Made by a program: the position numbers and the translations under genes. The notes beneath the pieces are model-generated. The model was not told the origin of the DNA. It made no database searches and saw only the letters and a program-made list of their open reading frames with translations. A stretch of DNA of 64,000 bases from Candidatus Bathyarchaeia archaeon (GTDB taxonomy: Archaea; Thermoproteota; Bathyarchaeia; Bathyarchaeales; Bathycorpusculaceae). Positions within the stretch are counted from its first letter, which is position 1. Every line of letters begins with the position of its first letter. The stretch covers positions 128,001 to 192,000 of the forward strand of contig JAVZLM010000001.1 in NCBI GenBank assembly GCA_038883775.1, read 5' to 3'. Of this stretch, positions 17,491-52,059 are shown piece by piece.

Positions 17491-17817
17491 TTATTCGGAG
17501 TATTGTTGTCCATAGTAGCTTGCTATTGTGACTAGGTCGTAAATGTCTATGCGATTCCATGGTGGAGCGTAATTAACGTTTGGGTTCCAGTTCAGCTCAT
17601 CTTCTCTGGAATCATATATTGAGGTTGCTAATATTATGTCGAAAATGTCCACCTTTCCATCACAGTTCACATCGGCATCAGGCGGGTTTATGCTTCCATC
17701 AGCTTTTATATAGACTGTCCCAGTCCATTCACTTCTAATTAGTTTAATTTCGATAGTCAATGCTAGCAAACCTATAAAAAGTAGTAGAAACATAATTCCA
17801 GAAGCAATTCTTTTCAA
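17491..17817 (-). CDS. Small secreted dockerin-like domain protein
   Basis: Signal peptide, short VYIKADGSINPP segment, then DVNCDGKVDIFDI...WNPN...IDIYDL duplicated dockerin-type loops. Confidence 0.7.
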   Translation of the reverse strand: MKRIASGIMFLLLFIGLLALTIEIKLIRSEWTGTVYIKADGSINPPDADVNCDGKVDIFDIILATSIYDSREDELNWNPNVNYAPPWNRIDIYDLVTIASYYGQQYSE

Positions 17818-36113: not shown

Positions 36114-37900
36114 TTAAGAAGAAAGTTTTTTCTCCACCAATGCCAACGCTAGTTCAGCATAATCGATTGAATTATGAATTGCGTCGCAAACTCGGTTTTT
36201 TTCTCTTATAAATTTCGTCTCCCAAAGCTTAAAATCTTCGTCTCTTTCATCCAACTCGGTGATTTTTTTGATTGAAACATAAAGTCTTGGAATGGGTTTC
36301 TGGGCGATTATATAGCCGTAGGGGTCCTGGCCATATCTCCCGGCTTCAGACCATAACACATGAGAGAGCTCGTAGCTCATCTTCATTAAGGATTTATTAA
36401 GCAAGTGGGTAATTTCCTCTATTTTTTCTTTATCTTCAAATTCCTCGTAGCATTTTTCTATTTTCTGTCGATATTCGTTCATTTTTTCTGCTACTTTTTT
36501 TAACTTTTCAGTTTTTTTAATTAAATCGCTAAAGTTTAATCTTCGTTCAAGCTTATTTAGTTCCTTTAAGTCTTGCATGAGCTTGTCAGCTACTAAAACA
36601 AAGTTGTACGGAATCACGAGCGCATTACATAACCTGAGTATAAGTAAAGTGTAAAAAAGTAAATGTTTCGAAAATAGCTCTTTATCTATTTTGTCTAGGG
36701 TGTCTGCTTCGCTATGTATCCAAGGGCTTAAAGAAGCCCAATTTAGCTCTTTCAGTTTTTCCGAGGTGTAACCAGTATAAAACGATAGGTACGGAATGCC
36801 TATTCCGAAGAAGGATTCGTCCCCTCCTTTATATGCGTCATGCCATTCGCCTTCTCCCCAGAACTCTTTTACAGTATTCTCAAGAAAATCTTTGATTATC
36901 GTTACGCCATGCATTATCGGAATACTGGTTTCTGCTATTCCGGGATTGTCGATGTTTACATAAGCTATGCAGTTGCCTCTAAGTTCATCCCAGCTGGTAT
37001 CAACAAACCATGTGGATCCCGCAGCTTCAGCTACTTCGTGGCCATCCCAAAATGCGAAGATGATGCTTCTCCTTAACTTATTTCTGTGTTTTGCAAGGAC
37101 TCTTGCTAACTCTAAGGTTAGTGAGTTACCAGAGGAGTTACAAATTGCTGTTTTTCCCCATGCTTCAAGATGCCCGCCAACTAAAACAAATTCTTCGAGG
37201 CCTTCTCTTCCTCTAAGTATTCCAATGGGCTGATAGGCTTTAACCCATTCACGTGTCGCTTCCGCCCGAAGCCACACTCTGACGTTCCCCTTTTGGGAAA
37301 GTCTTTTCAGGTATTCTCCAGCAGTTCTCGTTATGCTTATCACCGTTATTTGAGGAATCTTTTTGAATGTTTCTGGAGTGGGGTTGCCCCACACCGACTT
37401 AATAGCGCCCAATTGAATGACGGGATTATCAGCTCTTCCCCAATTCATTATGATCATAGCCTTCGCTCTTTTTTCACACGCTATTCTCGCTTTTTCAGGT
37501 CGCGGAGGCGCCCAGGTCATATCTACAAGCACAATCTTGTCTCTAACATCTTTTTCAATATAGTTTTCATATCCACCTGCCCAACATAGACGAGTTCACC
37601 TTCAATTCCCTCAGGCAGTGTTGAAACAATGTGACAAAATGGTTTTGCGTGTATAACCCTGGTTTCGGGGTGTAGAACTCTGAGTTCTGCATTAATGGGG
37701 TAGCTATGATAAATGTAGAAATTGTCTATTCTTGCTTCTAATTCGTAGGATTCCAGTTCTTTTCTGATGTATTCTGCCGCCTGCCTCATTTTTTCTGTCC
37801 CTGCAGGCCTTTCTCCAATCTCATTAACTAGAAACTCCATATGTTTAAACGCTTCTTCCAGTGACAACTCCTTTAGAATTTCCTTTTCAACGAGTTTCAG
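36114..37900 (-). pseudogene. M28 family peptidase with PA domain, frameshifted near 37581
   Basis: ERPAGT, EGELVYVG|AGGYENY..DVRDKIVL restored by adding 1 nt in the GGG run; GGHLEAW, DGHE, NIDNPG, HSEADTLDKID; probable CTG start at 37900 after GGAGG. Confidence 0.82.
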
Positions 37901-38140
37901 TTTAACTCCTCCGTTTAAATCTAATGTTTTTACCACAATATTTAATGTTCTCTTTTATTTTTAAACTGTAAAAAGCTTCCCTTGTCTTTAATAAGTCAAT
38001 AACAATTACTGTGAAGCTTCTTTTCTTCAGCTTTCATTGTGTTAGTTCGCGACGTTGCTGCCTCTGCAATTATTGTTTAAACCTCAAATAAAGTAAGAAT
38101 TAAATATTACAAACCAGCATTACCCTTAAGAGGGAAAAAT

Positions 38141-40504
38141 ATGAAGAATAAAAAAGGAATAATGCTAGTTATGGCTTTAGTTGCTTTGACAAGTCTTATA
38201 CTTATGCCAGGTGTTTACGCAACGAATCCGCCACCAAATCCTTATGAACTTATAGTTGATAGACTTTCGGGTTATCTTGTTGCTACGCTAGACAGTCACA
38301 ACTCTTACGATGGACCGAGTGGTGAGTTGATTCAGAACGTTTATGATCCTTTGATTTACTGGGAGGGTGAACCTTACGATGTCTTCGTTCCTAAATTGGC
38401 TACGCAGGTTTGGATTGCTCCTCCCGACCCAACAGCACCCCCATACACAAACTTCACCATCTACTTCAAAATACGCGAAAACGTACTCTTCCACAACAAA
38501 TGTAGAACTGACTACCCGATGGACTGGTCAAACCTAGCTCCAATCTACCTAACACCGGAAGACGTGGAATACAGCTTTGAACGCTTGCTGGTACATGATT
38601 ACGCAAACGGTGCTCAATGGATGGTTTTTGAAGCAGTTTTAGGAGTTGAACAAGCAGATACTTCATGGCCGAGTAATGAGAGTAACCCCATTAACTTGGC
38701 CTTCGAAAGCAACGCAACCCACTTCTGGATGAACATCGCAAACAGGGGCTTTGCCCCATCCCAAGGAACAACATCTTTCACACCCATCCAACTGTTCGAC
38801 CAAACAGGCCGCCAAAGAGCCACATTCTGGCAAGAATTGAGTAATGCTAAATTATGTTATCCAATAGCGATAACGCTTCAAGTGATTGGAGAACCTTGGT
38901 TCCTAATTGTTAGTAAGCGTTGGACTCTTGAATGGCTCATCCCAACAGGCACCGCTCAAGGCCTGGACCTAAACGAAACCGCACCAGGAACACAAATCGA
39001 CTGGCCCGGAACATGGGACAATTGGATAGACTACGAAGGCTGGGCCGAAAGCCCCTACGACAAAATAGGCACAGAAAAACCAGGCGTGGTCTGCGGAACA
39101 GGCCCATACATCCTAGACAGGTACGACCCAACACTAACTGGAGGATATTCATTAGTGAAAAATGACAACTATTGGGGAGGGTGGCCAGCTAGTTATCCAA
39201 ATCCACCATACGTGCCTCAACCAGCCAGCGGGCTTAAACCAGCAGGCTATGTAACACGAGTAACGGTTAGACAGCAGACGTTAACGAACTTGATATCTAA
39301 TATGATCGCTGGAGATTGTGACCTTACGTTTCCTCCAAGTCCTAATATGGGTCAGCTTCATGTTGGTAATGACCGGAATGCTGAGACACTTCCTGGTATA
39401 AGGCTTGACTATCCATGCTTCCTCTTTAGTATGGGTTCTTTGCATCCGACTTTTGACATTACCCCAACACCTGACAACAGATATGGCAAAATAAACGATT
39501 ACGGCGTTTACACCTCCGACGGAATACCAAGAGATTTCTTCAACGACACCCACATCCGCAAAGCCTTCTTCTACCTCGTAAATCACTCCGTACTCATCGA
39601 CGAATACTTCTTAGGCGAAGCCTACCAACCTAACACCATAGTACCCATGGGCCTCAAATACCAAAACCCAGACCAAGAAGGCTACAAACTAAATATAACC
39701 CGCGCCGTAGAAGAATTTAACCAAGCCAACCCAGCCGTAAGAGAAACCGGCTTCACTGTAACCCTAATCTACGCCTTAGCCCTAGAAGAAGGAAGAGTCA
39801 TATTAGAAGATCTAGCAGCAAGAATCAACCAAATAGGGCAAGACTACTTCAACGGAAAATTCCACGCAACTGTTATGGGCATATCATGGACTGAGTTCTT
39901 CCCCGCTTGGGTTAACCTTTGGTTGCCGTTCTGGCATATGACTTGGGGAGCGGACTACGCTGATATACACAATTTCGCTCAACCCTTCATGCACAGTAGA
40001 GGAGTCTATCCAATGTTCCAAGGATATCATAATGACTACTTGGATAGCCTAGTTGAAGCCGGAATAACGGCGCCTGAGGGTCCAGAAAGGCAAGCCATAT
40101 ACTACGAGGCGCAGAGAATATACTTCGAAGAAGCCATTGGCCTCCCACTTGACGTTCCAGTCTTTAGGCGATATTTGAGAGAATGGGTTGCTGGAAGATA
40201 TTACAACGCACTTTACCAAGGCATGGTTTATGCTTATAACTTGTGGAAGTGGGAGTACATCCGCGGCAATGTCAATTGCGACGACAAAGTCTTCATGGAT
40301 GACATCCTCGCCATTATCGACGCCTTCGGCTCCTACTACGGCAAGGCAGGATTACCAAAGTTTCACCAAAGATGGAACTTCCGCTGTGACATACCAGGCA
40401 ACCCGAGAGAAACATGGACTGACAGAAAAATTGATATGTACGATATAACAGCAGCCCTAGACAACTTCGGAAAAACCCAAACACCATGGCAACCACCACC
40501 CTAA
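38141..40504 (+). CDS. ABC peptide substrate-binding protein (family 5) with C-terminal dockerin-like domain
   Basis: Signal peptide, VPKLA, LTPEDVEYSFER, GTGPY, IRKAF, WGADYAD, PERQAIY; tail GNVNCDDKV..DDI...DRKIDMYDI. Confidence 0.9.
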   Translation: MKNKKGIMLVMALVALTSLILMPGVYATNPPPNPYELIVDRLSGYLVATLDSHNSYDGPSGELIQNVYDPLIYWEGEPYDVFVPKLATQVWIAPPDPTAPPYTNFTIYFKIRENVLFHNKCRTDYPMDWSNLAPIYLTPEDVEYSFERLLVHDYANGAQWMVFEAVLGVEQADTSWPSNESNPINLAFESNATHFWMNIANRGFAPSQGTTSFTPIQLFDQTGRQRATFWQELSNAKLCYPIAITLQVIGEPWFLIVSKRWTLEWLIPTGTAQGLDLNETAPGTQIDWPGTWDNWIDYEGWAESPYDKIGTEKPGVVCGTGPYILDRYDPTLTGGYSLVKNDNYWGGWPASYPNPPYVPQPASGLKPAGYVTRVTVRQQTLTNLISNMIAGDCDLTFPPSPNMGQLHVGNDRNAETLPGIRLDYPCFLFSMGSLHPTFDITPTPDNRYGKINDYGVYTSDGIPRDFFNDTHIRKAFFYLVNHSVLIDEYFLGEAYQPNTIVPMGLKYQNPDQEGYKLNITRAVEEFNQANPAVRETGFTVTLIYALALEEGRVILEDLAARINQIGQDYFNGKFHATVMGISWTEFFPAWVNLWLPFWHMTWGADYADIHNFAQPFMHSRGVYPMFQGYHNDYLDSLVEAGITAPEGPERQAIYYEAQRIYFEEAIGLPLDVPVFRRYLREWVAGRYYNALYQGMVYAYNLWKWEYIRGNVNCDDKVFMDDILAIIDAFGSYYGKAGLPKFHQRWNFRCDIPGNPRETWTDRKIDMYDITAALDNFGKTQTPWQPPP

Positions 40505-40605
40505 CAATACGAACAAAACCCATTATTTCTCTATCCATTTCTGTTCTTTTTATAATATTTTTATAGTAAATACCTAAAAAATAAGCAATAAGTAACGTTA
40601 AAATG

Positions 40606-41670
40606 CTAAAGTTTTTTAAGAGTCTTAGTTAAAATTTCAACATGATCGCCCACATACACATCATCTTCTATTCTGACTCCTCCTAAATCAGGAATGTATA
40701 TTCCCGGTTCCACTGTAAACACATATCCCCTCTTCACTTTCTCTGTTGTGGTCATACTAACAATCGGTTCATCATGCCCCAATCCAAGTCCATGACCAAT
40801 GCAGTGGGTGAAGTATTCATCGTAACCATACTCTTTAAAAAGCGACCGGCATCTCTCTTCAACTAGCCTTAAATCTTGCCCAATCTTTATCGCTTTTATA
40901 GCTTCTTCTTGCCCCTCTACTACAATGTCAAGAATCTCTAAAAGCTTCTCTGAAACATTGCCCACCGGATATGTTCTGGTCAAATCAGAGAAGTACCCCT
41001 CGTAGACTGCTCCAAAATCACAAATCACAAGCTCTCCCTCCGAGAGTTTCTTGTTTGTAGGTATATGATGGGGAAACGCGGAATTTTTTCCAGCTGCTAT
41101 TATAGTCGGAAAACTCATCAGTTGAGCTCCCTTAGATCGCACAACCCGATCAATTTCAATTGCTATTTCAGCTTCAGTCTTTCCCTCCCTTAGAATCTCC
41201 TCTACAAGGATCTTAGCGCCGTAGTCAACCAACTCTGCAGCTTTCCTAAGCTTTTCCACCTCATCTGGCTGTTTGCAGGCTCTCATCTCTCGAATGAAAT
41301 CATCCTTTTCCACCCTTATACCACTAATCTTATACTCCTCATCGCAAAGAATGCTCTTTACATTGAGGTTCATAAGAAGCTTTTTAACCATTTCATTCTC
41401 AACTTTTGGATTAGGTGCAACATCTGGGTAAAATCTCACATCCTTAATTGCACAGTGTTCTTTCACCCTGTTCTTTTCAAGAGGATATGCCAAGCCCACA
41501 GGATCGCCATCCGCTGGGATAATAACATGATTCAACAACGTATAGAAGGGCAGGTGAGTGGAAGAGAGGTAACGAATGTTTTCTGGCTGTTTAACAAGGA
41601 ATGCATCAAATTCTCTTTCAACGAGCATCTCCCGAATTGTAGACCATCGCCTTTCGTAGTAGTTTAGCAT
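40606..41670 (-). CDS. Xaa-Pro peptidase (M24B)
   Basis: PHH, D.GA...GYFSDLTRT, H.IGHGLG, TVEPGIY, GVRIEDD. Confidence 0.94.
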   Translation of the reverse strand: MLNYYERRWSTIREMLVEREFDAFLVKQPENIRYLSSTHLPFYTLLNHVIIPADGDPVGLAYPLEKNRVKEHCAIKDVRFYPDVAPNPKVENEMVKKLLMNLNVKSILCDEEYKISGIRVEKDDFIREMRACKQPDEVEKLRKAAELVDYGAKILVEEILREGKTEAEIAIEIDRVVRSKGAQLMSFPTIIAAGKNSAFPHHIPTNKKLSEGELVICDFGAVYEGYFSDLTRTYPVGNVSEKLLEILDIVVEGQEEAIKAIKIGQDLRLVEERCRSLFKEYGYDEYFTHCIGHGLGLGHDEPIVSMTTTEKVKRGYVFTVEPGIYIPDLGGVRIEDDVYVGDHVEILTKTLKKL

Positions 41671-41886
41671 TTTTCTTCACTTCGGCAAAGAAATCTATCG
41701 TATAATGTTATATGTTTTTCGGGAGTCCTTCGGCTCTGATAAAACATTATTAGTACAACATCTTCTTCAATTGGCTATAACTTTAGTCTTAATAGTATAG
41801 AGATTTTTGATTTTAGAAACTGTTAAATATACTTAATAAACTACTTACATTGTTTTAGATTAAGAAATTTAGTAGAGGGAAGAGAA

Positions 41887-44259
41887 ATGGTTCAGAAAAA
41901 TCTTATGTCAGCGGTTTTTCTCGTTATCTTAATATCGCTTATAGTTATCCCAAACAATACTTCTGCAGCTCCTAATCTATCTAATCCGCCGAAAAATCCA
42001 TATGAGCTTATCATAGACGTACCATTAGGCGCTGGAGGTGATAGTGTTGATCCTGCTATGGGAAATGTATTCGTTCCATGGCACGTATGTGAAGTCCCTA
42101 TAGGTTTTGACGGCGAACGTTACGATGTCTTTATTCCTTTAGCGGCCACTCAAGCTTGGATAGGTCCGCCACAAAATAACCCGACTTATGGTCCCCTGTC
42201 TCCACCTTATACAAATTATACAATATACTTCAAAATACGCACAGGCATACCTTTCCACAACAGATGTAGAACTGATGAGCCATTCAATTTTAATCAGTAT
42301 TACTTAACAACCATTGATGTGGAATACAGCATTGAAAGAGTGTTGGTGCACGACTTTTTAGCTTCGTGGACAACTGTTTATTTATATGAACCTTTGCTGG
42401 ACTGTCAAACTGGAGACCCTACAGATCCAAATTTTGGAACGAAGATAGATAACGCAGCTCAGAGCAATGAAACACATGTTTGGCTAAATATTGCAAATCC
42501 AGGCTTGAGTGAAGGTGGATCCGTTTCATTTGCTCCAGTCAAAATGTTTGAAACCGAAGATGGACGTTTTAGCGCAACATTTTGGGATGAAATTGCGCAT
42601 CTCCCTCTAGGATATCCTGTCAGAATAATTCTACAAGTAATTGCTGAGACATGGGTAGGCATCATAAGCAAACAATGGGTGCTCGACTTTGTGATTCCAT
42701 GGGGTGTCACTAACAACATAGATTTGAACCCCGATGTGGAGGGAATACAGTTTGAATGGGATGGAGATTTCACTCATTGGGCTGACTACTGGCGTTGGGG
42801 AGAAAGCCCGCTTGATAAAATAGGTACCTTACACCCGGGTGTAATCATCGGGACAGGTCCATATATACTGGACCGATGGGATGCAACGCCTGCGGGAGAA
42901 GTGTCGCTTGTTAGGTTTGATGAGTATTGGGGAGGATGGCCAGCAAGATTGCCGAGTCCACCCTATTCGCCGCAACCAAGCAGTGGCATAAAACCAGCAG
43001 GTTACGTAACAAGAGTAACTATGAAGCGTAAGACTGAAGCCAGCATCATAGCTGATCTTTTATCTGGAGACTGCGACCTTGCACCCGAAATCTCAAGAGG
43101 AAGTTGCGTATCACTGCATGAAGATTATGACCTAAAAGGTCCAACACGCCCAGGGATTAGACTCCACTTCTATCCTTTCTTGGAGGTCATGTCATACCAT
43201 TTTACATTTATCATTCAACCTACGTTGGACAATAGATGGGGAAAAGTTATCGCAAATAACACGTTCAGCGATGATGCCATACCTGCAAATTTCTTCAACG
43301 ACTCCCATGTACGCAAAGCATTTGCCTATCTCATAAATTACACCATGATAATCCAAGACATGTTATTCGGCGAAGCATACCAGCCTGTTACATGCGCACC
43401 ATCTGGCATACCCTACGTCAATCTCACTCAGCCGCACTACACACAGAACATAACTAAAGCTATCGAAGAGTTCAACTTAGCCTTTGATGGGCAACTTGCA
43501 GAAACAGGCTTCACTATCAAACTGTATTATTTAGCCTTCGATATATGGCCTGCCATCACCGAAGATCTCGCAGCAACTATAAACAAGGTGGGAAATGAAT
43601 ATTTTAATGGCAAATTCCACGCTGAGTCACATGAAATCTCTTCAGCTGAATTTTACACAGCACTATTCGAACATCAGCTTGCAGCTTATCCGATGGGTTG
43701 GATTGGGGACTATGCGGATATACATAACTTTATAGTCTGTTACATGGGCAGCAGTGGTTATTGGGCTTATGCTTCAGTTTATAGCAACCCGGAGGCAGAT
43801 CAATTAATACAAAAAGGAATGAGAACGCCTGACGGCCCTGAAAGACAAGCGATCTACCAAAGACTACAGGAGATATACTATGAAGATGTTCCTAGTGTAC
43901 CAACCCATGTTGAGGTGAGAAGATGGTACGCAAGAACGTGGGTTCAAGGAAATCAGCCAACCCATCCACTTTATACTACTACTTTTGGATATGCCCATTG
44001 GAAATGGGAGTATCTTCGGGGCAATGTGAACTATGACGACAAAGTCTTCATGGATGACATCCTCGCCATTATCGACGCCTTCGGCTCCTACTACGGCAAG
44101 GCGAATATACCAATAATGCACCCAAGATGGAACTTTCACTGCGACGTTGACGGAAATCCCTTTGACTCGTGGCGTGACAGAAAAATTGATATGTACGATA
44201 TAACAGCAGCCCTAGACAACTTCGGAAAAACCCAAACACCATGGCAACCACCACCCTAA
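41887..44259 (+). CDS. Second ABC peptide substrate-binding protein (family 5) with C-terminal dockerin-like domain
   Basis: Paralog of 38141-40504; DVEYSIER, GTGPY, VRKAF, GWIGDYAD; near-identical dockerin-like tail. Confidence 0.9.
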   Translation: MVQKNLMSAVFLVILISLIVIPNNTSAAPNLSNPPKNPYELIIDVPLGAGGDSVDPAMGNVFVPWHVCEVPIGFDGERYDVFIPLAATQAWIGPPQNNPTYGPLSPPYTNYTIYFKIRTGIPFHNRCRTDEPFNFNQYYLTTIDVEYSIERVLVHDFLASWTTVYLYEPLLDCQTGDPTDPNFGTKIDNAAQSNETHVWLNIANPGLSEGGSVSFAPVKMFETEDGRFSATFWDEIAHLPLGYPVRIILQVIAETWVGIISKQWVLDFVIPWGVTNNIDLNPDVEGIQFEWDGDFTHWADYWRWGESPLDKIGTLHPGVIIGTGPYILDRWDATPAGEVSLVRFDEYWGGWPARLPSPPYSPQPSSGIKPAGYVTRVTMKRKTEASIIADLLSGDCDLAPEISRGSCVSLHEDYDLKGPTRPGIRLHFYPFLEVMSYHFTFIIQPTLDNRWGKVIANNTFSDDAIPANFFNDSHVRKAFAYLINYTMIIQDMLFGEAYQPVTCAPSGIPYVNLTQPHYTQNITKAIEEFNLAFDGQLAETGFTIKLYYLAFDIWPAITEDLAATINKVGNEYFNGKFHAESHEISSAEFYTALFEHQLAAYPMGWIGDYADIHNFIVCYMGSSGYWAYASVYSNPEADQLIQKGMRTPDGPERQAIYQRLQEIYYEDVPSVPTHVEVRRWYARTWVQGNQPTHPLYTTTFGYAHWKWEYLRGNVNYDDKVFMDDILAIIDAFGSYYGKANIPIMHPRWNFHCDVDGNPFDSWRDRKIDMYDITAALDNFGKTQTPWQPPP

Positions 44260-44405
44260 CAATACGAACAAAACTCATCATCCTCATTTCTTATCTTTTA
44301 AAGGACTAATTCGAAATTGACCACAATCAAAGCCTCCGACAAAGTTATAAATTAGATGTTCTTTGCTACCTTAAAGAAACGGGCACTAAAAGAAGTGAGC
44401 ATCAA

Positions 44406-45440
44406 TTGGGTTTGCGAGAATATATCATAAGAAGAATCATTTTGCTAATACCTGTAGTCTTTGGAGCAGTTATACTTGTTTTCGCTATCACACAGATGAT
44501 TCCGCCTGCTTCGAGGGCATACCTTTACATAAGGTCAGAAAAAGATATTCAAAAAATATCAGAATTCATAAAAGCTTACCATCTAGACGCTTCTCCTCTG
44601 GAGCAGTTCTATTACTGGTTCCAAGAAGTTTTAAAAGGGAATTTAGGCTGGTCAACAGAGGGAAGAGCCCCTGTTTTAAGCGTGATCAGGACCTCTTGGC
44701 CTGCTACAATTGAAATAGTGCTTTTTTCAGCTCCAATAACAATACTTTTGGGTATATACCTAGGAGTGCTATCTGCTGTCCATCGTGATAAACTAGTTGA
44801 CCATGCCACACGCTTATTTTCAATAACCGGCTACTCCCTTCCAGCTTTTTGGCTAGCACTCATATTACTTTCGATTGCATTTTCCTTAACGGGAGAAAAC
44901 ATAACAGGTAGAGTTTCTCCAGAACTCCAGAATGTCGTGACAAACTCGCTCATATTTAAAACCTATACTGGTCTATACACAATTGATGGAATATTAAACG
45001 GAAGGTTAGACGTAACTATTGATGCACTTAAACATTTGATCCTACCCGTTATTACGATAACCACGGTTAACGTCGCAGGCCTAATTAGACTCATGCGATC
45101 CAGCATGCTTGAGGCCCTTACAAAAGGCTATATAGTCACAGCTAAGGCTAAAGGTCTAAAAAATAGTCAAGTAATAAACAAACATGCCAGAAGGAACGCC
45201 TTAATACCAGTAGTTACGATGTCGGGAATGTTAGTCATCTGGATGCTCTCAGGTTTGGTTATAACTGAAACTATTTTTAATTTTGGTGGCTTGGGAAGTT
45301 GGGCGGCAAGATGTGCATTACGATTAGATATAGCATCAGTAGTTGGTTTCACACTTTTTACGGCATTACTTTTCGTTATTTCAAACTTAGTAATTGACAT
45401 TTTGTACGCCTACATTGATCCGAGAATAAGGCTGGGATGA
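44406..45440 (+). CDS. dppB: Oligo/dipeptide ABC permease DppB/OppB
   Basis: YIIRR, GNLGWS, SLPAFWL, RLMRSSMLE....Y..TAKAKGL (EAA), YAYIDPRI. Confidence 0.93.
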   Translation: MGLREYIIRRIILLIPVVFGAVILVFAITQMIPPASRAYLYIRSEKDIQKISEFIKAYHLDASPLEQFYYWFQEVLKGNLGWSTEGRAPVLSVIRTSWPATIEIVLFSAPITILLGIYLGVLSAVHRDKLVDHATRLFSITGYSLPAFWLALILLSIAFSLTGENITGRVSPELQNVVTNSLIFKTYTGLYTIDGILNGRLDVTIDALKHLILPVITITTVNVAGLIRLMRSSMLEALTKGYIVTAKAKGLKNSQVINKHARRNALIPVVTMSGMLVIWMLSGLVITETIFNFGGLGSWAARCALRLDIASVVGFTLFTALLFVISNLVIDILYAYIDPRIRLG

Positions 45441-45441
45441 T

Positions 45442-46620
45442 ATGCGTTCAAAAAAATTCAAATTAAAATTCTATGAATGGAAAAAGGCTAATGAGCCAAC
45501 AATAAAAGAATTCAAATTTATGTTGAGCAATATTAGAAAAAGTCCGTTGTCAATTATTGGCATGTTCATTATTTTATTTTATGTGCTTGTTGCATTATCA
45601 GCACCCTATCTTGCTCCCCCGTATCCATCATGGGACGTGGCGAAAATAAATGATCCCTTCGCTATTCCGCGTGCTGGTAGCAAATTTCTTCCTTCACCAC
45701 CCACTCCAGAACATCCATTTGGGCTAACAATCGATCAATATGATATATACTATGGATGTATATGGGGGAGCATAACCGCCTTCCGTGTAGGAGTCTACGT
45801 TGTGGCAATATCTTTATTGATAGGCCTGACTTTAGGATTAGTTGCTGGCTATTATGGAGGTTTAGTGGACGAAATTTTAATGCGGTTCACAGACATCATT
45901 ATGGCATTTCCAGGTTTGATACTGGCTATGACGTTTACCATAGCATTACCCGGAACGTTAACAATTCCTCTGACAGTCATTTTAATATTATTGACAGTTT
46001 TTTTCTTAATTTTAACTACAAGGAATCTTTCAAGCATCGAAAGAAGAGAAATTTTAAAAACGAGAACTTTCACAATTCCAATTAGTGTAACCTTAGCGTT
46101 AATGGCCGTTGTAGCCGCAATATTTTTTGGATACATCTCTGATGTGGGAATTTTAAACATACCTTTAACACGACTTGATAAAGTTTTAATATCACTAATT
46201 CTTGTCGGATGGCCCGGATACGCGAGGCTGATAAGAGGAGAAGTTCTCCGTACAAAAAACGAAGATTATGTGGAAGCTGCTAAGGCCATTGGATGCAGCG
46301 ACTTACGGATAATTCTGAGGCATATTGTTCCTAACACGATCTATCCTATAATCATCTTGGGGTCACTAGACATAGGCTCGATTGTTCTCTCCGCGGCTGC
46401 GTTAAGTTTCCTAGGCATAGGCGCAGAGAAAAATTTCGCAGACTGGGGACAACTAGTTCAAAAATCACAGCAAATTATGACAGCAGGCGCGCAGAGTTTG
46501 CTTTTTTACTGGTACATATGGTTAATTCCAGGAGCGTTCATCTTTATATTTGGTTTGGGATGGAACCTTCTTGGAGACGCACTTAGAGACATTTTGGATC
46601 CAACATTGAGAAGGCGATAG
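45442..46620 (+). CDS. dppC: Oligo/dipeptide ABC permease DppC/OppC with two-TM insertion
   Basis: HPFG, AGYYGG.VDE.LMR, WPGYARLIRG, YVEAAKAIG, LGDALRD.LDP. Confidence 0.93.
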   Translation: MRSKKFKLKFYEWKKANEPTIKEFKFMLSNIRKSPLSIIGMFIILFYVLVALSAPYLAPPYPSWDVAKINDPFAIPRAGSKFLPSPPTPEHPFGLTIDQYDIYYGCIWGSITAFRVGVYVVAISLLIGLTLGLVAGYYGGLVDEILMRFTDIIMAFPGLILAMTFTIALPGTLTIPLTVILILLTVFFLILTTRNLSSIERREILKTRTFTIPISVTLALMAVVAAIFFGYISDVGILNIPLTRLDKVLISLILVGWPGYARLIRGEVLRTKNEDYVEAAKAIGCSDLRIILRHIVPNTIYPIIILGSLDIGSIVLSAAALSFLGIGAEKNFADWGQLVQKSQQIMTAGAQSLLFYWYIWLIPGAFIFIFGLGWNLLGDALRDILDPTLRRR

Positions 46621-46622
46621 AA

Positions 46623-47747
46623 TTGCAAAGTGATAGCCTAATAAAAGTTGAAGGTTTAGTATTAAGATTTTACACTTACGAAGGCATAGTTGAAGCGTTA
46701 GACAACGTGAACTTACAGATAAAACCTGGCGAAATACTTGGGCTTGTTGGCGAAACTGGATGTGGAAAGAGCGTTACAAGTCTTTCAATACTTAACATAG
46801 TCCCTCCACCGGGAGTAATTGAAGGTGGAAAAATAATCATAAACACAGATGGAAAAGAAATAGATCTTTTAAAACAGAAAGAAGATTTTTTGAGGAAAGT
46901 TCGTGGCAACGATATATCCATGGTTTTTCAGGAGCCAAAGGCGTACCTTAACCCGGTCTATACTGTGGCAGATCAAATTGGAGAAGTTTTAATCGAACAT
47001 AGAAAAAAGGAATTTATCGATCGTGTACTTGAAGAGCTTAAACAAAAGAATGAAAGTTTTTATTTACGCCTATATACGAAAATGGCTAAAAATCCGAACG
47101 CTTTGTCCATTAAGGTTCTTTCTAAAATACCATTGATCAGAAGATTCGAAAACCCACTTAAAAGTGAAATCAGAAAGGAAGTAATCAAAATCCTTAGAAG
47201 TTTGGAGATCGCCGACCCTGAAAGGGTTGCTGATATGTATCCACATGAACTAAGCGGTGGAATGGCGCAAAGAGTTGTGATCGCAATGGCCCTTGCATGC
47301 AACCCCAAGCTTCTGATATGCGATGAACCTACCACAAATTTGGACGTAACTGTGCAGGCTCAAATATTGGAGCTCATAAGAATTTTAAGGCAAAACTTCA
47401 AATCCTCAATACTTTATATTACGCACGATTTGGGAGTCATCGCCGAACTTTGTGAACGGGTAGCAGTAATGTACGCCGGGAATGTTGTTGAAATTGCTGA
47501 AGTTATAGAGATTTTCAAGAAACCTTTACACCCGTATACTCAAGCATTGCTTGAGTCAATTCCAAGACCGGGAAAAAAATTTAAATCAATTCCTGGGATG
47601 GTGCCGAGTCTAATTAACCCTCCGAAAGCATGTCGATTTTATGATAGATGCTATTACACAATGGATATATGCCAAAAGATTAAACCTAAACTCATAGAAG
47701 TTACAAAAAATCATTTCGTTGCTTGCCATATGTATGGAGAAAAATAG
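46623..47747 (+). CDS. dppD: Oligo/dipeptide ABC ATPase DppD/OppD
   Basis: GETGCGKS, YPHELSGGMAQR, DEPTT, HPYT, C-terminal CRF..RC...C...VACH. Confidence 0.94.
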   Translation: MQSDSLIKVEGLVLRFYTYEGIVEALDNVNLQIKPGEILGLVGETGCGKSVTSLSILNIVPPPGVIEGGKIIINTDGKEIDLLKQKEDFLRKVRGNDISMVFQEPKAYLNPVYTVADQIGEVLIEHRKKEFIDRVLEELKQKNESFYLRLYTKMAKNPNALSIKVLSKIPLIRRFENPLKSEIRKEVIKILRSLEIADPERVADMYPHELSGGMAQRVVIAMALACNPKLLICDEPTTNLDVTVQAQILELIRILRQNFKSSILYITHDLGVIAELCERVAVMYAGNVVEIAEVIEIFKKPLHPYTQALLESIPRPGKKFKSIPGMVPSLINPPKACRFYDRCYYTMDICQKIKPKLIEVTKNHFVACHMYGEK

Positions 47748-48824
47748 ATGTACGAGCTAATACTTTACATAAAAGAACTAAAAAAATACTATCCAATACT
47801 CGGCGGAATCCTAAGGAAAAAAGTTGCAGAAGTCAAAGCAGTAGATAACGTAAGCTTTCAGATATTCAGAGGCGAGTGCTTAGGACTTGTTGGCGAGTCG
47901 GGATGTGGAAAAACTACATTGGGAAAAACAATAATAAGACTTCTTAATCCAACATCGGGTCACATATACTTTAGTATTCAAGATAACATATACAAAGAAG
48001 CTGAAAGCTCAGAACAAAGTTCAATAAACATGGAAGAATTACAAAAAATTGGAATCAGCCCAAGCCAAGTAAAGAACATGGCTGACATTTCAACGTTCAA
48101 GGGATTAAAGCTTAAAAAGCTTCGTAGAAGAATGCAAATAGTTTATCAAGATCCTACGACTTCCCTAAATCCAAGAATGCTTGTAAAGGATATAGTGGGC
48201 GAACCCTTAATCGTCCAAAAAATTGTTAAAAAATCTGAAGTTCTGCCTAAAGTTACTGAAATGTTACACAAAGTGGGAATGGGTGAACAGCACCTTTACA
48301 GATATCCACACGAATTTAGCGGGGGACAAAGACAACGAATTGCTATAGCAAGAGCACTCATTACGAACCCGGAATTTGTAGTCTTAGATGAACCAACATC
48401 TGCAGTTGACGTTTCTGTTAGAGCTCAATTGTTGGAACTATTTCAAGGACTACAGAAAAGCATGGGATTGACCTATCTCTTTGTAAGCCACGACTTGAGC
48501 GTTGTAGAATGCATAAGTCACAGAGTTGCCGTGATGTATCTTGGAAAAATAGTTGAGTTAGCTGAAACAGAGAAAATATTCAAGAATCCTTTGCATCCCT
48601 ATACTCAAGCACTTATGAATTCGATTCCAATACCTGACCCGACTAAACGCAGGATGCGAGCTATCCTAAGAGGAGAAGTTCCAAGCCCAATTAATCCTCC
48701 AATAGGCTGTAGATTTCATCCACGTTGTTCATTAGCGATGGATATATGTCGCAAAGAAGAACCATTGTTACAGGATGCCGGAAACCATCATATGGTAGCA
48801 TGTCATGCAATTAAAGGCAAATAA
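47748..48824 (+). CDS. dppF: Oligo/dipeptide ABC ATPase DppF/OppF
   Basis: GESGCGKTT, YPHEFSGGQRQR, DEPTSA, GEVPSP.NPP.GCRFHPRC. Confidence 0.94.
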   Translation: MYELILYIKELKKYYPILGGILRKKVAEVKAVDNVSFQIFRGECLGLVGESGCGKTTLGKTIIRLLNPTSGHIYFSIQDNIYKEAESSEQSSINMEELQKIGISPSQVKNMADISTFKGLKLKKLRRRMQIVYQDPTTSLNPRMLVKDIVGEPLIVQKIVKKSEVLPKVTEMLHKVGMGEQHLYRYPHEFSGGQRQRIAIARALITNPEFVVLDEPTSAVDVSVRAQLLELFQGLQKSMGLTYLFVSHDLSVVECISHRVAVMYLGKIVELAETEKIFKNPLHPYTQALMNSIPIPDPTKRRMRAILRGEVPSPINPPIGCRFHPRCSLAMDICRKEEPLLQDAGNHHMVACHAIKGK

Positions 48825-48847
48825 AAGCGAATGGGCGCATGCAATTT

Positions 48848-49492
48848 TCAGCGTTTTCTAAAAAGTTTTCTTTTCCTCTTGTATAGTTCATATGATGTTA
48901 AAACTACACCTAAAACGGTTAGTGTGACACCGACAGGTAAAAGAAACATGTAAGGATAAGAAACTTCTTGTTTCAGCAACCAAATTCGTGCCGGGGGATC
49001 TTCGGATCCGAAATTATTAAAAATTGACTTCTCATCAACTATAACGGTAAAGTTTCCCTCTTTCTTAACCACTCCACCAATGTAATCTTGAACTTTTTCT
49101 ACAGATAATGATGATTCACTACTTGATCCTCCTGCACCTACACTTGCAGTTGCGTTGAGTAATGATAAAACTGGCGTGATGCTTAAAGGTGATCCTTGGT
49201 ATACATAGAAATAACATACAAAGTCAATACGAGTAGCGTCTGGACCAGTGATGGTGACGTTAATCGCAACTGTGCGTCCACCCGCAAGAAATCGTCCCCA
49301 CTCGCGATGTGCCCTTATGTCGACGATCATCATTTCACCTTTTCTATAATATCCTGTGACATTCCAAACAAAGTATTCCTGTTTTACAGATAATTGATCA
49401 GGGGATATGTTAGAAATATTGGAAACACTCATAAGTGAGAAACTCGCAATTAAAAGAAAAATGCCCATGTAAAGGGAAGTATTTTTTCTCAT
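48848..49492 (-). CDS. Hypothetical protein with signal peptide, beta-rich ectodomain and C-terminal TM
   Basis: Hydrophobic N- and C-termini, basic tail, N-glycosylation sequons. Confidence 0.75.
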   Translation of the reverse strand: MRKNTSLYMGIFLLIASFSLMSVSNISNISPDQLSVKQEYFVWNVTGYYRKGEMMIVDIRAHREWGRFLAGGRTVAINVTITGPDATRIDFVCYFYVYQGSPLSITPVLSLLNATASVGAGGSSSESSLSVEKVQDYIGGVVKKEGNFTVIVDEKSIFNNFGSEDPPARIWLLKQEVSYPYMFLLPVGVTLTVLGVVLTSYELYKRKRKLFRKR

Positions 49493-49646
49493 CAGTTGAG
49501 CACCAAAATGTTAACATTGCTTGAACATTTATGTTTTTCTTTGAAAGAGAAAACATTTTAAATTTTCAGTTAGAACGAACATTTTAATGTAGGTTGTGCT
49601 CAACAAACTTATAAATCGCTTTGATAACCTCTATACGTGGTTGAAA

Positions 49647-50756
49647 ATGAAACATAAATGGTTAACAAGGGCAACCTTGCTTACTGTGATATTACTATTA
49701 TCTTTGCTGGCGCCTCTTTCTACGATAGTCGTTAAAGCCCAAGAAGAGGCTACGATAAGGATTATAAATCCCTTGTCAGGTGACAACAAGTTCATTTTTA
49801 ACATTGCGGATTTTCCAGTGAACACCACCTTCACTGTTGAATTTTACATCGAAAATGTAACTGCACTACTAAGTTGGCAAATATTCATAAAATGGAACAA
49901 TACAATTATACACTTTCAAAAGGGTTGGATACCTGACAACAACGTTTTCGCTGAAGCTATTGACCAAGGCGCTACGCTAATAGCACCGCCGCCATCCGTG
50001 GAGATAGTAGAGGATACTGGCTACTTGAAATATGGTGCCTCAATACTTCCATTAACACCAGTTAATGTGCCTGACAGCGCCCTTTTATGCAAGCTAAACT
50101 TCACGATAGCAATAGAGCCTCAAGACAGCCAGGAATTCACAAACATAGAATTGATACCAAAAGAGGAAGGAAGTACATCCTTAGACACTTTTGTCATCCT
50201 TAAAAAAGACTCATCTCGGACACCTATTCCCGTGTACGCCCAACCGGCAATCGTGAGAATTTTAAAGGAGGAAATTTCGATAATTCGAGATCTTGCGATA
50301 CACTTGCTTAAGGTTGAACCATCAATTGTTGATGCTGGCGACACATTAACGATCACATTAGTGCTCATCAATTTCGGTAATGATCTGGAAACTGCTAATA
50401 TCACAATACGTTATAACGAAACGATACTTATAAACTTTGAACAATCATTGGGAGCCAACCAAAACTTCATTAAAGAAAAAACATGGAACACAACAGGTGT
50501 TAAGCCTGGACTTTACATAATTTCAGTTGATATTGCCATACTTCCCGGCGAGACAAACACGACGAACAACCATGCAGAAAATATGGTAATTATTAACAAA
50601 AAGCTAGAAATTCAAGAGTATATAGTTTGGATTCTTATTTTATGGCTTAACACACCACTGGGAATATTAGCAATAACATACACCTTGATTTTCATAGGAA
50701 TTTTCACATTATTATCGATACGTAAGAAACTAAAAGTTATACGAAGTAAGCTGTAA
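49647..50756 (+). CDS. Membrane-anchored cohesin-like + CARDB-like surface protein
   Basis: Signal peptide; FTVEFYIENVTALLSWQIFIKWNNTII...LLCKLNFTI cohesin-like pattern; DLAI..L.V.P...G..L.I...L.N.G...E...WNTTG..PG.Y.I......PGETNTTNN CARDB-like; C-terminal TM. Confidence 0.75.
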   Translation: MKHKWLTRATLLTVILLLSLLAPLSTIVVKAQEEATIRIINPLSGDNKFIFNIADFPVNTTFTVEFYIENVTALLSWQIFIKWNNTIIHFQKGWIPDNNVFAEAIDQGATLIAPPPSVEIVEDTGYLKYGASILPLTPVNVPDSALLCKLNFTIAIEPQDSQEFTNIELIPKEEGSTSLDTFVILKKDSSRTPIPVYAQPAIVRILKEEISIIRDLAIHLLKVEPSIVDAGDTLTITLVLINFGNDLETANITIRYNETILINFEQSLGANQNFIKEKTWNTTGVKPGLYIISVDIAILPGETNTTNNHAENMVIINKKLEIQEYIVWILILWLNTPLGILAITYTLIFIGIFTLLSIRKKLKVIRSKL

Positions 50757-50982
50757 AACTAAATAACTGTAAACAAAAAGATATTATATAAAGCGTTTTT
50801 ATTTTGCCATGCGAAAAAGGAAGATTAAGAACGGTTCAAGAAAAACTTAGTGCAAATAGCTACTTAGTTTAGTGCTTAGGTTGTGCGATGAGAGGTTCAT
50901 TTTATGCGTTGGTTTTTAAACGATGCTTGAGAAATAGCAAATTTAAAATATTTCTTTGTGGAAAAACTTAGCCAAGGTGAGA

Positions 50983-52059
50983 ATGTTGAATAAAAAATTA
51001 GTGATCGCGTTGATTCTGATGACGTTTATATGGTTAATACATTTATCGCTGTTGAATCAAGTGAAAGCCCAAACGTCGACAATTTCAATAATTAACCCAG
51101 GCCCAGCAAGTAAACCTGCAAAATGGACTGCTGCACCACCGCCTCCTGGAGAAATAGGTGGACCAAGCTTTACTTTTTACGCCCCTCAAACAGCTTTGGA
51201 GTCGACTTTCTTCATAAACTTAACCATTGAAAATGCTGTTAACATTAGAAGTTGGGGCATAGGTCTAGTCTATGAAAACGCGTCAATCGCTTATGTTTCG
51301 GCATGGAGACCTACAGATCACATATTTGCCCCCGCAGAAAGTGGCGGTGCAACCCCAATTGTTCCATCAGTTACCTTAGAAGGTATTAACACAACACATA
51401 CAATCCTAAAATGGGGCTATGCGTACCTTTGGAAGGATGAGGAAGGAAATCCGATAAGATGGGGATTTAATGGGTCAGGCGTATTATGCCAAATACAATT
51501 CAAATTGGTTAAAGCGGTAGATTCCGGCCAATGGACAACTGTTTTAGCATTGGATCCGGAGTGGACGCAAGTTTATCCTTTTGACATGCCCCCAGAAACT
51601 CCAAATGTAGAACCCGGCTATGTCACTTACATTTATGATGATACTCCTCCACTAATTCAGAACGTCACACAAACTCCTCCGGCAAATAATGTTCAACCAA
51701 ATGAACCTGTAATTGTTTCAGCAAACGTCACAGATGATAATGGAGTAAAAAGTGTAATATTAAATTACACAATCGACAATGGCGAAACTTGGACATCCGT
51801 AGCTATGACATATAATGAAGATTCAGGTTTGTATGAAGGAACGATCCCGGGACAAGCTGCGGGAACAAACGTAAAATATCAAATACATGCTGAAGATAAC
51901 GCTGGAAACATAGCCACAAACGACAATGAAGGAGAGTATTTCCCCTACATCGTTATTCCAGAGTTAACTATTGCAGCAATAGTTTTACTATTGACATTCG
52001 TGTCTCTGTTCATCATAATCGCTGCAAAACGCAATAAAAGACCAGTGATAAGAGCATAA
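50983..52059 (+). CDS. Membrane-anchored cohesin-like + Ig-like surface protein with IPE(F/L)-type C-terminal sorting signal
   Basis: FFINLTIENAVNIRSWGIGLVYE...GFNGSGVLCQIQFKLV cohesin-like; DTPPLIQNV...V.VSANVTDD.GV.SV.L.Y Ig-like; VIPEL + TM + basic tail. Confidence 0.75.
   Translation: MLNKKLVIALILMTFIWLIHLSLLNQVKAQTSTISIINPGPASKPAKWTAAPPPPGEIGGPSFTFYAPQTALESTFFINLTIENAVNIRSWGIGLVYENASIAYVSAWRPTDHIFAPAESGGATPIVPSVTLEGINTTHTILKWGYAYLWKDEEGNPIRWGFNGSGVLCQIQFKLVKAVDSGQWTTVLALDPEWTQVYPFDMPPETPNVEPGYVTYIYDDTPPLIQNVTQTPPANNVQPNEPVIVSANVTDDNGVKSVILNYTIDNGETWTSVAMTYNEDSGLYEGTIPGQAAGTNVKYQIHAEDNAGNIATNDNEGEYFPYIVIPELTIAAIVLLLTFVSLFIIIAAKRNKRPVIRA

Follow-up and report, generated by a model that had tools for sequence, protein, structure and literature searches.

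Predicted dockerin-tailed solute-binding proteins and membrane-anchored cohesins at a peptide-type ABC importer locus of a Bathyarchaeia archaeon

Solute-binding proteins (SBPs) of archaea are normally held at the cell by a C-terminal transmembrane (TM) helix or by an N-terminal lipid or TM anchor. In anaerobic methanotrophic (ANME) archaea, dockerin-bearing SBPs of the NikA/OppA and TroA types were reported in the section devoted to these proteins by Chadwick et al. (2022, PLoS Biol, PMC9012536), and supplement S4 of that paper contains PF00496 domains among the ANME dockerin and cohesin proteins. The same section refers to archaeal versions of cohesin and dockerin as verified to bind and calls for experiments on which modules bind. 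The corresponding part of Timmers et al. 2017 (PMC5244752) gives domain counts only. Non-cellulosomal cohesin and dockerin modules were also described for Archaeoglobus fulgidus (Bayer 1999; Haimovitz 2008; Peer 2009, as cited in these parts of PMC9012536 and PMC5244752). Here we describe a locus of a Candidatus Bathyarchaeia archaeon (assembly GCA_038883775.1, here G000; 1.69 Mb in 28 contigs, 91% complete) at which two SBPs of one ATP-binding cassette (ABC) importer end in a predicted dockerin and two predicted membrane-anchored cohesins, P8 and P9, are encoded beside the permease genes. The locus lies in a stretch of 64,000 nucleotides (nt), referred to as the window (contig C1:128001-192000, GenBank JAVZLM010000001.1), and its principal features, in window coordinates and with lengths in amino acids (aa) and expectation values (E) where a Pfam match was found, are the following.

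38141..40504, plus strand: SBP1, 787 aa; predicted signal peptide aa 1-27 (ending V-Y-A, then TNPPP), family-5 solute-binding core, C-terminal predicted dockerin
40253..40501, plus strand: predicted dockerin module of SBP1, aa 705-787; two loop-helix repeats
41887..44259, plus strand: SBP2, 790 aa; predicted signal peptide, family-5 core, C-terminal predicted dockerin at 44008-44256
44406..45440, plus strand: dppB/oppB-type permease; Pfam BPD_transp_1, E 8.5e-38
45442..46620, plus strand: dppC/oppC-type permease; Pfam BPD_transp_1, E 1e-28, and OppC_N
46623..47747, plus strand: dppD/oppD-type ATPase; Pfam ABC_tran and oligo_HPY
47748..48824, plus strand: dppF/oppF-type ATPase; Pfam ABC_tran and oligo_HPY
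49596..50756, plus strand: P8, 386 aa (369 aa from the ATG at 49647); predicted signal peptide, predicted cohesin at about 49746-50183, CARDB domain at about 50277-50603, C-terminal TM helix and basic tail
50956..52059, plus strand: P9, 367 aa; predicted signal peptide, predicted cohesin (profile match at about 51190-51534), Ig-like domain of the DUF7743 type at about 51634-51948, C-terminal TM helix and basic tail

The locus resembles the ANME case in that a family-5 (PF00496) SBP with a dockerin occurs alongside cohesin proteins encoded by the same genome, and in both the function comes from annotation only. It differs in belonging to another phylum (the relatives are Candidatus Bathyarchaeota) and in that its dockerin and cohesins form a divergent subtype missed by domain annotation, so that it would escape such a survey. 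The ANME section of PMC9012536 contains no statement of single-cohesin TM-anchored receptors at the locus, of synteny, or of the exchange of a TM helix for a dockerin. For the modules of A. fulgidus the role was left open, whereas the present locus suggests one through its cargo and anchor. With the type I and type II pairs of bacterial cellulosomes (PDB entries 2y3n, 2ozn, 2ccl, 1tyj and 3fnk) the locus shares the predicted folds, a dockerin with predicted loop-helix duplication, a predicted interface in which both dockerin helices face one side of the cohesin sandwich, and the principle that an anchored cohesin holds dockerin-tagged cargo. The cargo here, however, would be a transport receptor instead of a glycoside hydrolase, a single cohesin is borne on a TM-anchored stalk where cellulosomes use a multi-cohesin scaffoldin with surface-layer homology (SLH) or sortase anchoring, the second dockerin loop is longer by an insertion of about 8 residues, and sequence similarity is too low for Pfam. 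With the usual archaeal SBPs those of the window have in common the receptor family and the need for retention at the surface of a cell that lacks an outer membrane, but a non-covalent plug and socket on a separate membrane protein would replace the covalent or integral anchor.

Both SBPs matched Pfam SBP_bac_5 (E 9.9e-28 for SBP1 and 1.2e-24 for SBP2), and with two BPD_transp_1 permeases and two ABC_tran ATPases carrying oligo_HPY the Opp/Dpp-type set is complete by Pfam. The window encodes an Opp/Dpp-type ABC importer, with peptides as the most likely substrate, in which one dppBCDF set is served by two secreted family-5 SBPs. A hydrophobicity scan gave a single hydrophobic segment in each SBP, at the N-terminus (aa 3-28 in SBP1, aa 1-29 in SBP2), and no C-terminal TM helix; the first 30 residues of both are without Cys. 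A preliminary description of the locus, made from its letters alone, had presented the SBPs in just these terms, as family-5 proteins with a signal-peptide-like N-terminus, no lipobox Cys and no C-terminal TM helix. In all ten dockerin-SBPs inspected, a small-x-small motif (AFA, AHA, VYA, TSA, ANA etc.) directly precedes the conserved mature N-terminus, which fits cleavage by a signal peptidase but is no proof of it.

At the C-terminus both SBPs carry, by alignment, a duplicated loop-helix module, and by homology and predicted fold these tails are diverged dockerins. The first repeat is close to canonical (N-x-N-x-D...D). The second ends canonically (K-I-D-M-x-D), and its calcium loop is split by the insertion of about 8 residues, which in an alignment of 33 tails is present in the window SBPs and their nearest kin and absent from the other relatives; those without it have canonical D-x-N-x-D...D loops in both repeats. 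A phmmer search with the 83-aa tail of SBP1 against 1.84 billion representative sequences returned 43 proteins at E<=1e-3, including 21 at E<=1e-10. Pfam was run on 39 of the 43, that is on all but three of 57-66 aa and one of 6340 aa. The SBP_bac_5 cut-off was reached by 17 of the 39, with the tail nearly always at or near the C-terminus, and the Dockerin_1 cut-off by 11 (for example P0049 with 282 bits and P0054 with 76 bits); other scanned relatives were NosD/beta-helix proteins, CARDB proteins and small proteins scarcely larger than the tail. The SBP tail thus appears as a mobile module with recognised dockerins among its relatives. The same dockerin tail occurs in three metagenomic proteins, P0028, P0039 and P0045, which combine a partial SBP_bac_5 domain with a caspase-type Peptidase_C14 domain and are receptor-protease fusions not known to have been described.

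Comparison of profiles by hhalign placed the 33 tails with seven dockerins of the same genome, chosen from the Pfam Dockerin_1 matches and including one above the cut-off, at a probability of 98.3% (E 2.5e-14, 60 columns across both repeats), against 0.1% for the control comparison of tails with cohesins. An AlphaFold2 (AF2) model of the tail, built with the 33-tail alignment, had a predicted local distance difference test score (pLDDT) of 79.5 and a predicted template modelling score (pTM) of 0.71, with two helices at tail residues 25-33 and 72-80. In a VIA fold search of this model over 48,161 representative PDB chains, which is independent of Foldseek, all 16 chains with Z>=2 were dockerins; the best was 2ozn_B (Z 6.8, root-mean-square deviation (rmsd) 1.8, 55 residues aligned). 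Foldseek placed dockerin-bearing chains at ranks 1-24 without exception (best E 0.03). The proposal that the duplicated calcium-loop/helix tail is a dockerin was therefore borne out by profile and by fold.

The genome contains seven SBP_bac_5 genes, three ordinary and four large. Two of the three ordinary SBPs (552-647 aa) have a signal peptide and, at the C-terminus, a TM helix and basic tail, and the third (C2_194906) has an N-terminal TM segment. The four large SBPs (770-812 aa) all end in a dockerin and are without a C-terminal TM helix, and so in these proteins the predicted dockerin takes the place of the anchor. Two of the four were found with a hidden Markov model (HMM) of the seven own-genome dockerins, C3_78433 (812 aa, E 1.3e-10) and C3_27079 (E 1.1e-10), in answer to how many dockerin-SBPs the genome holds besides SBP1 and SBP2. 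Downstream of the C3_78433 gene come a dppBCDF set of its own and the gene of a dockerin-ended subtilase (family S8).

P8 and P9 are, on profile evidence, membrane-anchored cohesins. An HMM was built from 11 cohesin modules of contig C3 (Pfam-matched, six of them above the cut-off) and run against 6568 open reading frames (ORFs) of at least 50 aa; beyond the training proteins it found only P8 (E 9e-9) and P9 (E 3.3e-7), and the next ORF had E 0.43. By hhalign the P8 family (13 sequences) matched the C3 cohesins with 95.9% (E 5.6e-9) and the P9 family (14 sequences) with 97.4% (E 1e-11); the two families matched each other with 99.8%, and P8 matched the dockerins with 0.3%. The N-terminal domains of P8 and P9 gave no match to Pfam Cohesin (PF00963) at E<=10, all 12 matches of the genome being on contig C3. 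For P8, the one protein whose cohesin fold was modelled, residues 34-179 of the model aligned to type II cohesins (2y3n_A, Z 11.0, rmsd 2.2, 116 aligned; 1tyj, Z 10.9; 3fnk_C, Z 10.8) and residues 211-319 to the CARDB domain 2kl6 (Z 14.1, rmsd 1.9, 105 aligned), these values being a re-alignment of Foldseek's own list. A Pfam scan of the full-length proteins found nothing on P8 and, on P9, only a sub-threshold Ig-like/DUF7743 match in the C-terminal half, which forms its second domain (25.4 bits, cut-off 27). The cohesin assignment of P9 rests on the profile comparisons, because Pfam Cohesin matches its homologues in another module: in P0086 and P0091 the hits lie on a second cohesin module and not on the P9-like one, and they were not used as evidence for P9. 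P8 and P9 each begin with a hydrophobic signal and carry towards the C-terminus a TM helix (aa 327-360 in P9) with basic residues after it, as do their homologues in relatives, and this fits type-I membrane proteins with the cohesin outside. The cohesin-like N-terminal domains of the preliminary description are thereby upheld, by HMM and hhalign for both proteins and by the modelled fold for P8.

A complex was modelled of the SBP1 tail (residues 8-93 of the tail construct), two calcium ions and the P8 cohesin, the last spanning aa 30-185 in the 369-aa form. Three runs gave an interface score (ipSAE, interaction prediction score from aligned errors) of 0.77, 0.74 and 0.81, with a median of 0.77, and the best of three controls gave 0.02. 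In calibration 58 of the 80 solved complexes and 2 of the 110 mismatched pairs reached the ipSAE mark, counts which hold only roughly here since own alignments and a riding ligand were used. The contacts, which agreed to at least 87% between runs with a pLDDT of at least 75 for the partners, involve both dockerin helices, at residues 28-37 and 71-82 of the 93-aa tail construct, and part of the loop-2 insertion. The model, a check that the preliminary description had proposed, supports binding in the sense that the SBP1 tail could occupy the P8 cohesin in the manner of other dockerins.

Three neighbouring genes enter the comparison of the locus with those of relatives or lie within the SBP region.

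40606..41670, minus strand: M24 Xaa-Pro-type metallopeptidase; Pfam Peptidase_M24, E 2.8e-60, and Creatinase_N; between SBP1 and SBP2
48848..49492, minus strand: P7, 214 aa; N- and C-terminal TM segments by TM scan; between dppF and P8
52116..52526, plus strand: P10, 136 aa; conserved neighbour of the SBP-dockerin operon

For P7 and P10 no function was obtained from Pfam, and the Atlas gave clusters of hypothetical proteins only. No signal peptide was seen in the M24 metallopeptidase. The preliminary description had put two proteins with cohesin, stalk and anchor directly after dppBCDF; the domains and anchors are present, but P7 intervenes.

A profile of the tail was run against 41 relatives and gave strong matches in four: G012 (E 1e-47, 1.6e-35 and 8.5e-26), G003 (E 1.2e-16), G004 (E 3.8e-14) and G021 (E 3.4e-13). 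The loci around these matches and two metagenome contigs (L062/L063) were annotated with the window proteins and with our own HMMs. The order P10, SBP-dockerin, dppBCDF, cohesin proteins is shared by G012, G003, G021 and L062/L063. In all of these a P10 homologue (38-45% identity) adjoins the operon, and in G012 and L062/L063 a P7 homologue lies beside the SBP gene. The cohesin proteins of the G012 and G003 loci include P8- and P9-like TM-anchored ones. In G021 (L073:4238-6555) the gene of a P8-like TM-anchored cohesin of 393 aa overlaps dppF by 4 nt if the longest ORF is taken, or begins at the first ATG about 18 nt after the dppF stop codon, and this points to its co-transcription with the transporter. 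With G000 included, dockerin-SBPs stand beside anchored cohesins in four of the five genomes having a tail-type SBP, a co-occurrence that the preliminary description had put forward as a check; the contig of G004 ends at the SBP gene. G012 has in addition an orphan tail-type SBP without an adjoining permease. The same genome encodes a 1041-aa protein (L076:5853-8978) composed of a family-5 SBP, a tail-type dockerin, a P8-like cohesin and a second tail-type dockerin, and such a fusion could let receptors chain onto one another. A second P8-like cohesin of G012 (L065) is fused to a dockerin, away from any SBP, and does not help to pair P8 with the tail. A scan of genome contigs with the P8 alignment was also uninformative: one locus from 43 pattern matches proved to be a distant 271-aa paralogue with no transporter nearby. 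In an order-wide sample of 151 genomes (G012 is outside it) the tail profile matched seven genomes at E<=1e-6; besides G000 these matches were generic dockerins, with a best E of 3.5e-9.

The tails of SBP1 and SBP2 are far more alike than the remainder of the proteins, with 83% aa and 85% DNA identity compared with 49% and 55% for the core. At identical residues the same codon is used in 59 of 69 cases in the tail and in 161 of 335 in the core. The two genes share exact DNA blocks, one of 68 nt and one of 100 nt, over the regions encoding the helices, with a diverged loop between them, and the second block ends about 15 nt past the stop codon. These identical blocks could be explained either by gene conversion or by a very strong constraint fitting both receptors to one socket. 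Since both tails present the same predicted contact helices, SBP1 and SBP2 could share sockets. The view of the SBPs as interchangeable modules fits the presence of two SBPs with one permease set, the near-identical tails and the orphan SBP of G012 with the same tail type.

Cohesins and dockerins occur elsewhere in the genome as well. Pfam Cohesin gave 12 matches, of which six lie above the cut-off (one only when summed with in-frame neighbours), all on contig C3 at 41-76 kb; Pfam Dockerin_1 gave 11 matches at E<=10, one above the cut-off, and neither window tail is among them. The contig C3 island (about 40-90 kb, outside the window) encodes multi-cohesin proteins, three with C-terminal TM anchors, and several dockerin-ended proteins, and a P7 paralogue heads its cohesin cluster. 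The genome as a whole holds at least seven further cohesin proteins (the TM-anchored ones being C3_61678, C3_70546 and C3_74739) and at least 10 further dockerin proteins. A dockerin-ended M14 carboxypeptidase is encoded on contig C20. The window itself has a 108-aa ORF (17491-17817, minus strand) in which a hydrophobic N-terminus is joined to nothing but a general-type dockerin, matched by the own-genome dockerin HMM with E 2.7e-21; its product may be cargo or an adaptor for an anchored cohesin. The dockerin cargo examined consisted of SBPs, peptidases of families S8 and M14, a NosD/beta-helix protein and one with CARDB repeats, and no glycoside hydrolase was among it. The locus would work like a cellulosome anchor but is no cellulosome, as P8 and P9 have one cohesin each and the cargo examined included no glycoside hydrolase. 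Of the assembly called cellulosome-style in the preliminary description, the coupling principle therefore stands, but neither a multi-cohesin scaffoldin nor a glycoside hydrolase is found at the locus.

Taken as a whole, it is likely that the SBPs dock by their dockerin tails onto the anchored cohesins encoded at their own locus. Both SBPs would be exported by way of a cleavable signal peptide, and the diverged dockerin of SBP1 and SBP2, replacing the C-terminal TM helix of ordinary SBPs, would plug into the cohesin of a neighbouring type-I membrane protein, namely P8 and perhaps also P9. With a CARDB or Ig-like stalk these would raise the cohesin clear of the membrane, and docking would keep the receptors at the cell surface close to the permease. 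An orphan SBP encoded elsewhere could use the same sockets. Domain identities, membrane topology, gene order and the complex model were computed; from these we infer cleavage, binding, calcium dependence, the partner cohesin and the substrate. What the preliminary description had observed is confirmed, and its interpretation is supported in part.

Several results weigh against docking at the own locus. Neither the SBP tails nor the N-terminal domains of P8 and P9, each scanned alone, matched any Pfam family at E<=10. The own-genome dockerin HMM gave the window tails only E 0.33 and 0.38, although they were its first sub-threshold matches and aligned end to end with two gaps; an HMM made from the two tails was significant among the genome ORFs for SBP1 and SBP2 only. 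A PDB sequence search with the SBP1 tail had the dockerin 2y3n_B as its sole match, at a non-significant E of 1, and searches with P8, as single sequence and as profile, gave one irrelevant match each (E 0.7 and 1.5). The fold scores of the tail, with Z up to 6.8, are below the caution line of 8, and Foldseek gave E 0.03 or worse; support for the dockerin fold rests on the exclusivity of the matches because of these low Z values. The AF2 model of P8 was of moderate quality (mean pLDDT 66.8, pTM 0.39). Because the second calcium loop carries an insertion, calcium binding there is uncertain. The pass of the complex model may stem from likeness, because cohesin-dockerin complexes are among the solved pairs, and since close cousins of a true partner also passed in the calibration of the tool, P8 is not singled out over P9 or the C3 cohesins. 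Since the minus-strand P7 intervenes after dppF, P8 and P9 lie outside the dppBCDF transcript in the window, which speaks against their co-transcription with the transporter. Finally, the hydrophobic core of the SBP signal peptide is long (about 19 residues), so that an uncleaved N-terminal anchor is possible.

Some of these points favour other explanations. The tails might be real dockerins that place the SBPs on other cohesins, such as the TM-anchored multi-cohesin proteins of contig C3, with P8 and P9 taking other cargo, for example the 108-aa dockerin-only protein. The genome offers such partners among its further cohesin proteins (three TM-anchored) and dockerin proteins, the complex calibration was passed by cousins of true partners, and the P9-like cohesins of G012 cluster with general-type dockerins. 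We nevertheless consider this unlikely: the SBP1 and SBP2 tails and the P8 and P9 cohesins both belong to a divergent, Pfam-invisible subtype at one locus, tail-type SBPs adjoin P8/P9-type cohesins in four genomes, and the model of P8 with the tail stood far above its best control. In a further explanation the hydrophobic N-terminus of the SBPs would stay uncleaved as a signal anchor, the SBPs would already be membrane-bound, and the dockerin would serve another purpose, in that it recruits cohesin-bearing partners or clusters the receptors. Here the small-x-small motif before the mature N-terminus in all ten proteins argues for cleavage, and two ordinary SBPs with similar N-terminal signals also have a C-terminal TM helix, which would be redundant if such signals stayed uncleaved. 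Besides the long hydrophobic core, the apparently N-terminally anchored ordinary SBP C2_194906 can be cited for an uncleaved segment, and the SBP-dockerin-cohesin-dockerin fusion of G012 suggests chaining of receptors over simple anchoring; even so, we hold an uncleaved anchor to be improbable.

It is very improbable that the tail is a degenerate dockerin relic serving as a calcium-stabilised C-terminal cap without a cohesin partner, with a coincidental neighbourhood of cohesins. Such a relic could show the insertion in the second calcium loop, the F that repeat 1 has in place of D/N at loop position 9 and the lack of a Pfam match. It would not be expected to outdo the core in conservation between paralogues or to have identical DNA blocks encoding its helices; nor does it agree with the same tail on unrelated proteins (NosD/beta-helix, CARDB and small, nearly tail-only proteins), with the cohesin synteny in four genomes or with the passed complex model.

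Beyond the docking of SBP1 and SBP2 onto P8 and possibly P9, a wider role can be proposed only tentatively. The locus may be one arm of a surface peptide-harvesting assembly, in which secreted proteases and peptide receptors are co-assembled over their permeases so that proteolysis outside the cell is coupled directly to uptake. In this tentative picture dockerins would tag the four peptide-type SBPs, the S8 subtilase and the M14 carboxypeptidase, and at least two specificity types of cohesin, that of P8 and P9 and that of contig C3, would receive them. The context of a peptide substrate consists of the M24 and M28 peptidase genes adjoining the operon and of the S8 and M14 peptidases that bear dockerins in the genome. 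The M28-family peptidase (36114-37936, minus strand) is represented by two ORFs of 137 aa and 472 aa in different frames with a 10-nt overlap, a frameshift or an assembly error.

Sequencing runs of three studies that carry the label hot-springs metagenome contained DNA near-identical to the window, and one of these studies may be the source; none of the runs listed was of RNA. Contigs from two runs labelled metatranscriptomic but flagged as probably DNA contained parts of SBP1, SBP2, dppC/D and P9 with 0-6 differences, with none of the listed pieces on P8; they were counted neither for nor against expression.

The preliminary description had regarded the arrangement as undescribed. This holds in part, as dockerin-SBPs were reported for ANME in the section of PMC9012536 cited above, and in the full-text literature, with subscription journals mostly outside, no account was found of TM-anchored cohesins at a transporter locus, nor of a binding test. 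What is added here is the Pfam-invisible subtype, the exchange of anchor for dockerin within one genome, the synteny, the passed complex model and the identical tail blocks. Because both modules are invisible to Pfam, surveys based on domain models undercount such systems.

Cohesin and dockerin modules of archaea have been known for more than two decades without an assigned role, and the locus offers a compact, testable case with a natural control built in, since sister SBPs of the same genome bear TM anchors. If binding is confirmed, it would be a third way of holding ABC receptors on archaeal cells, beside lipid and TM anchors, and would explain how orphan SBPs share a permease. Should the peptide-harvesting role also apply, the identical DNA of the contact helices would reflect selection for exchangeable receptors compatible with one socket, and archaeal modules called enigmatic since 1999 would gain a physiological role.

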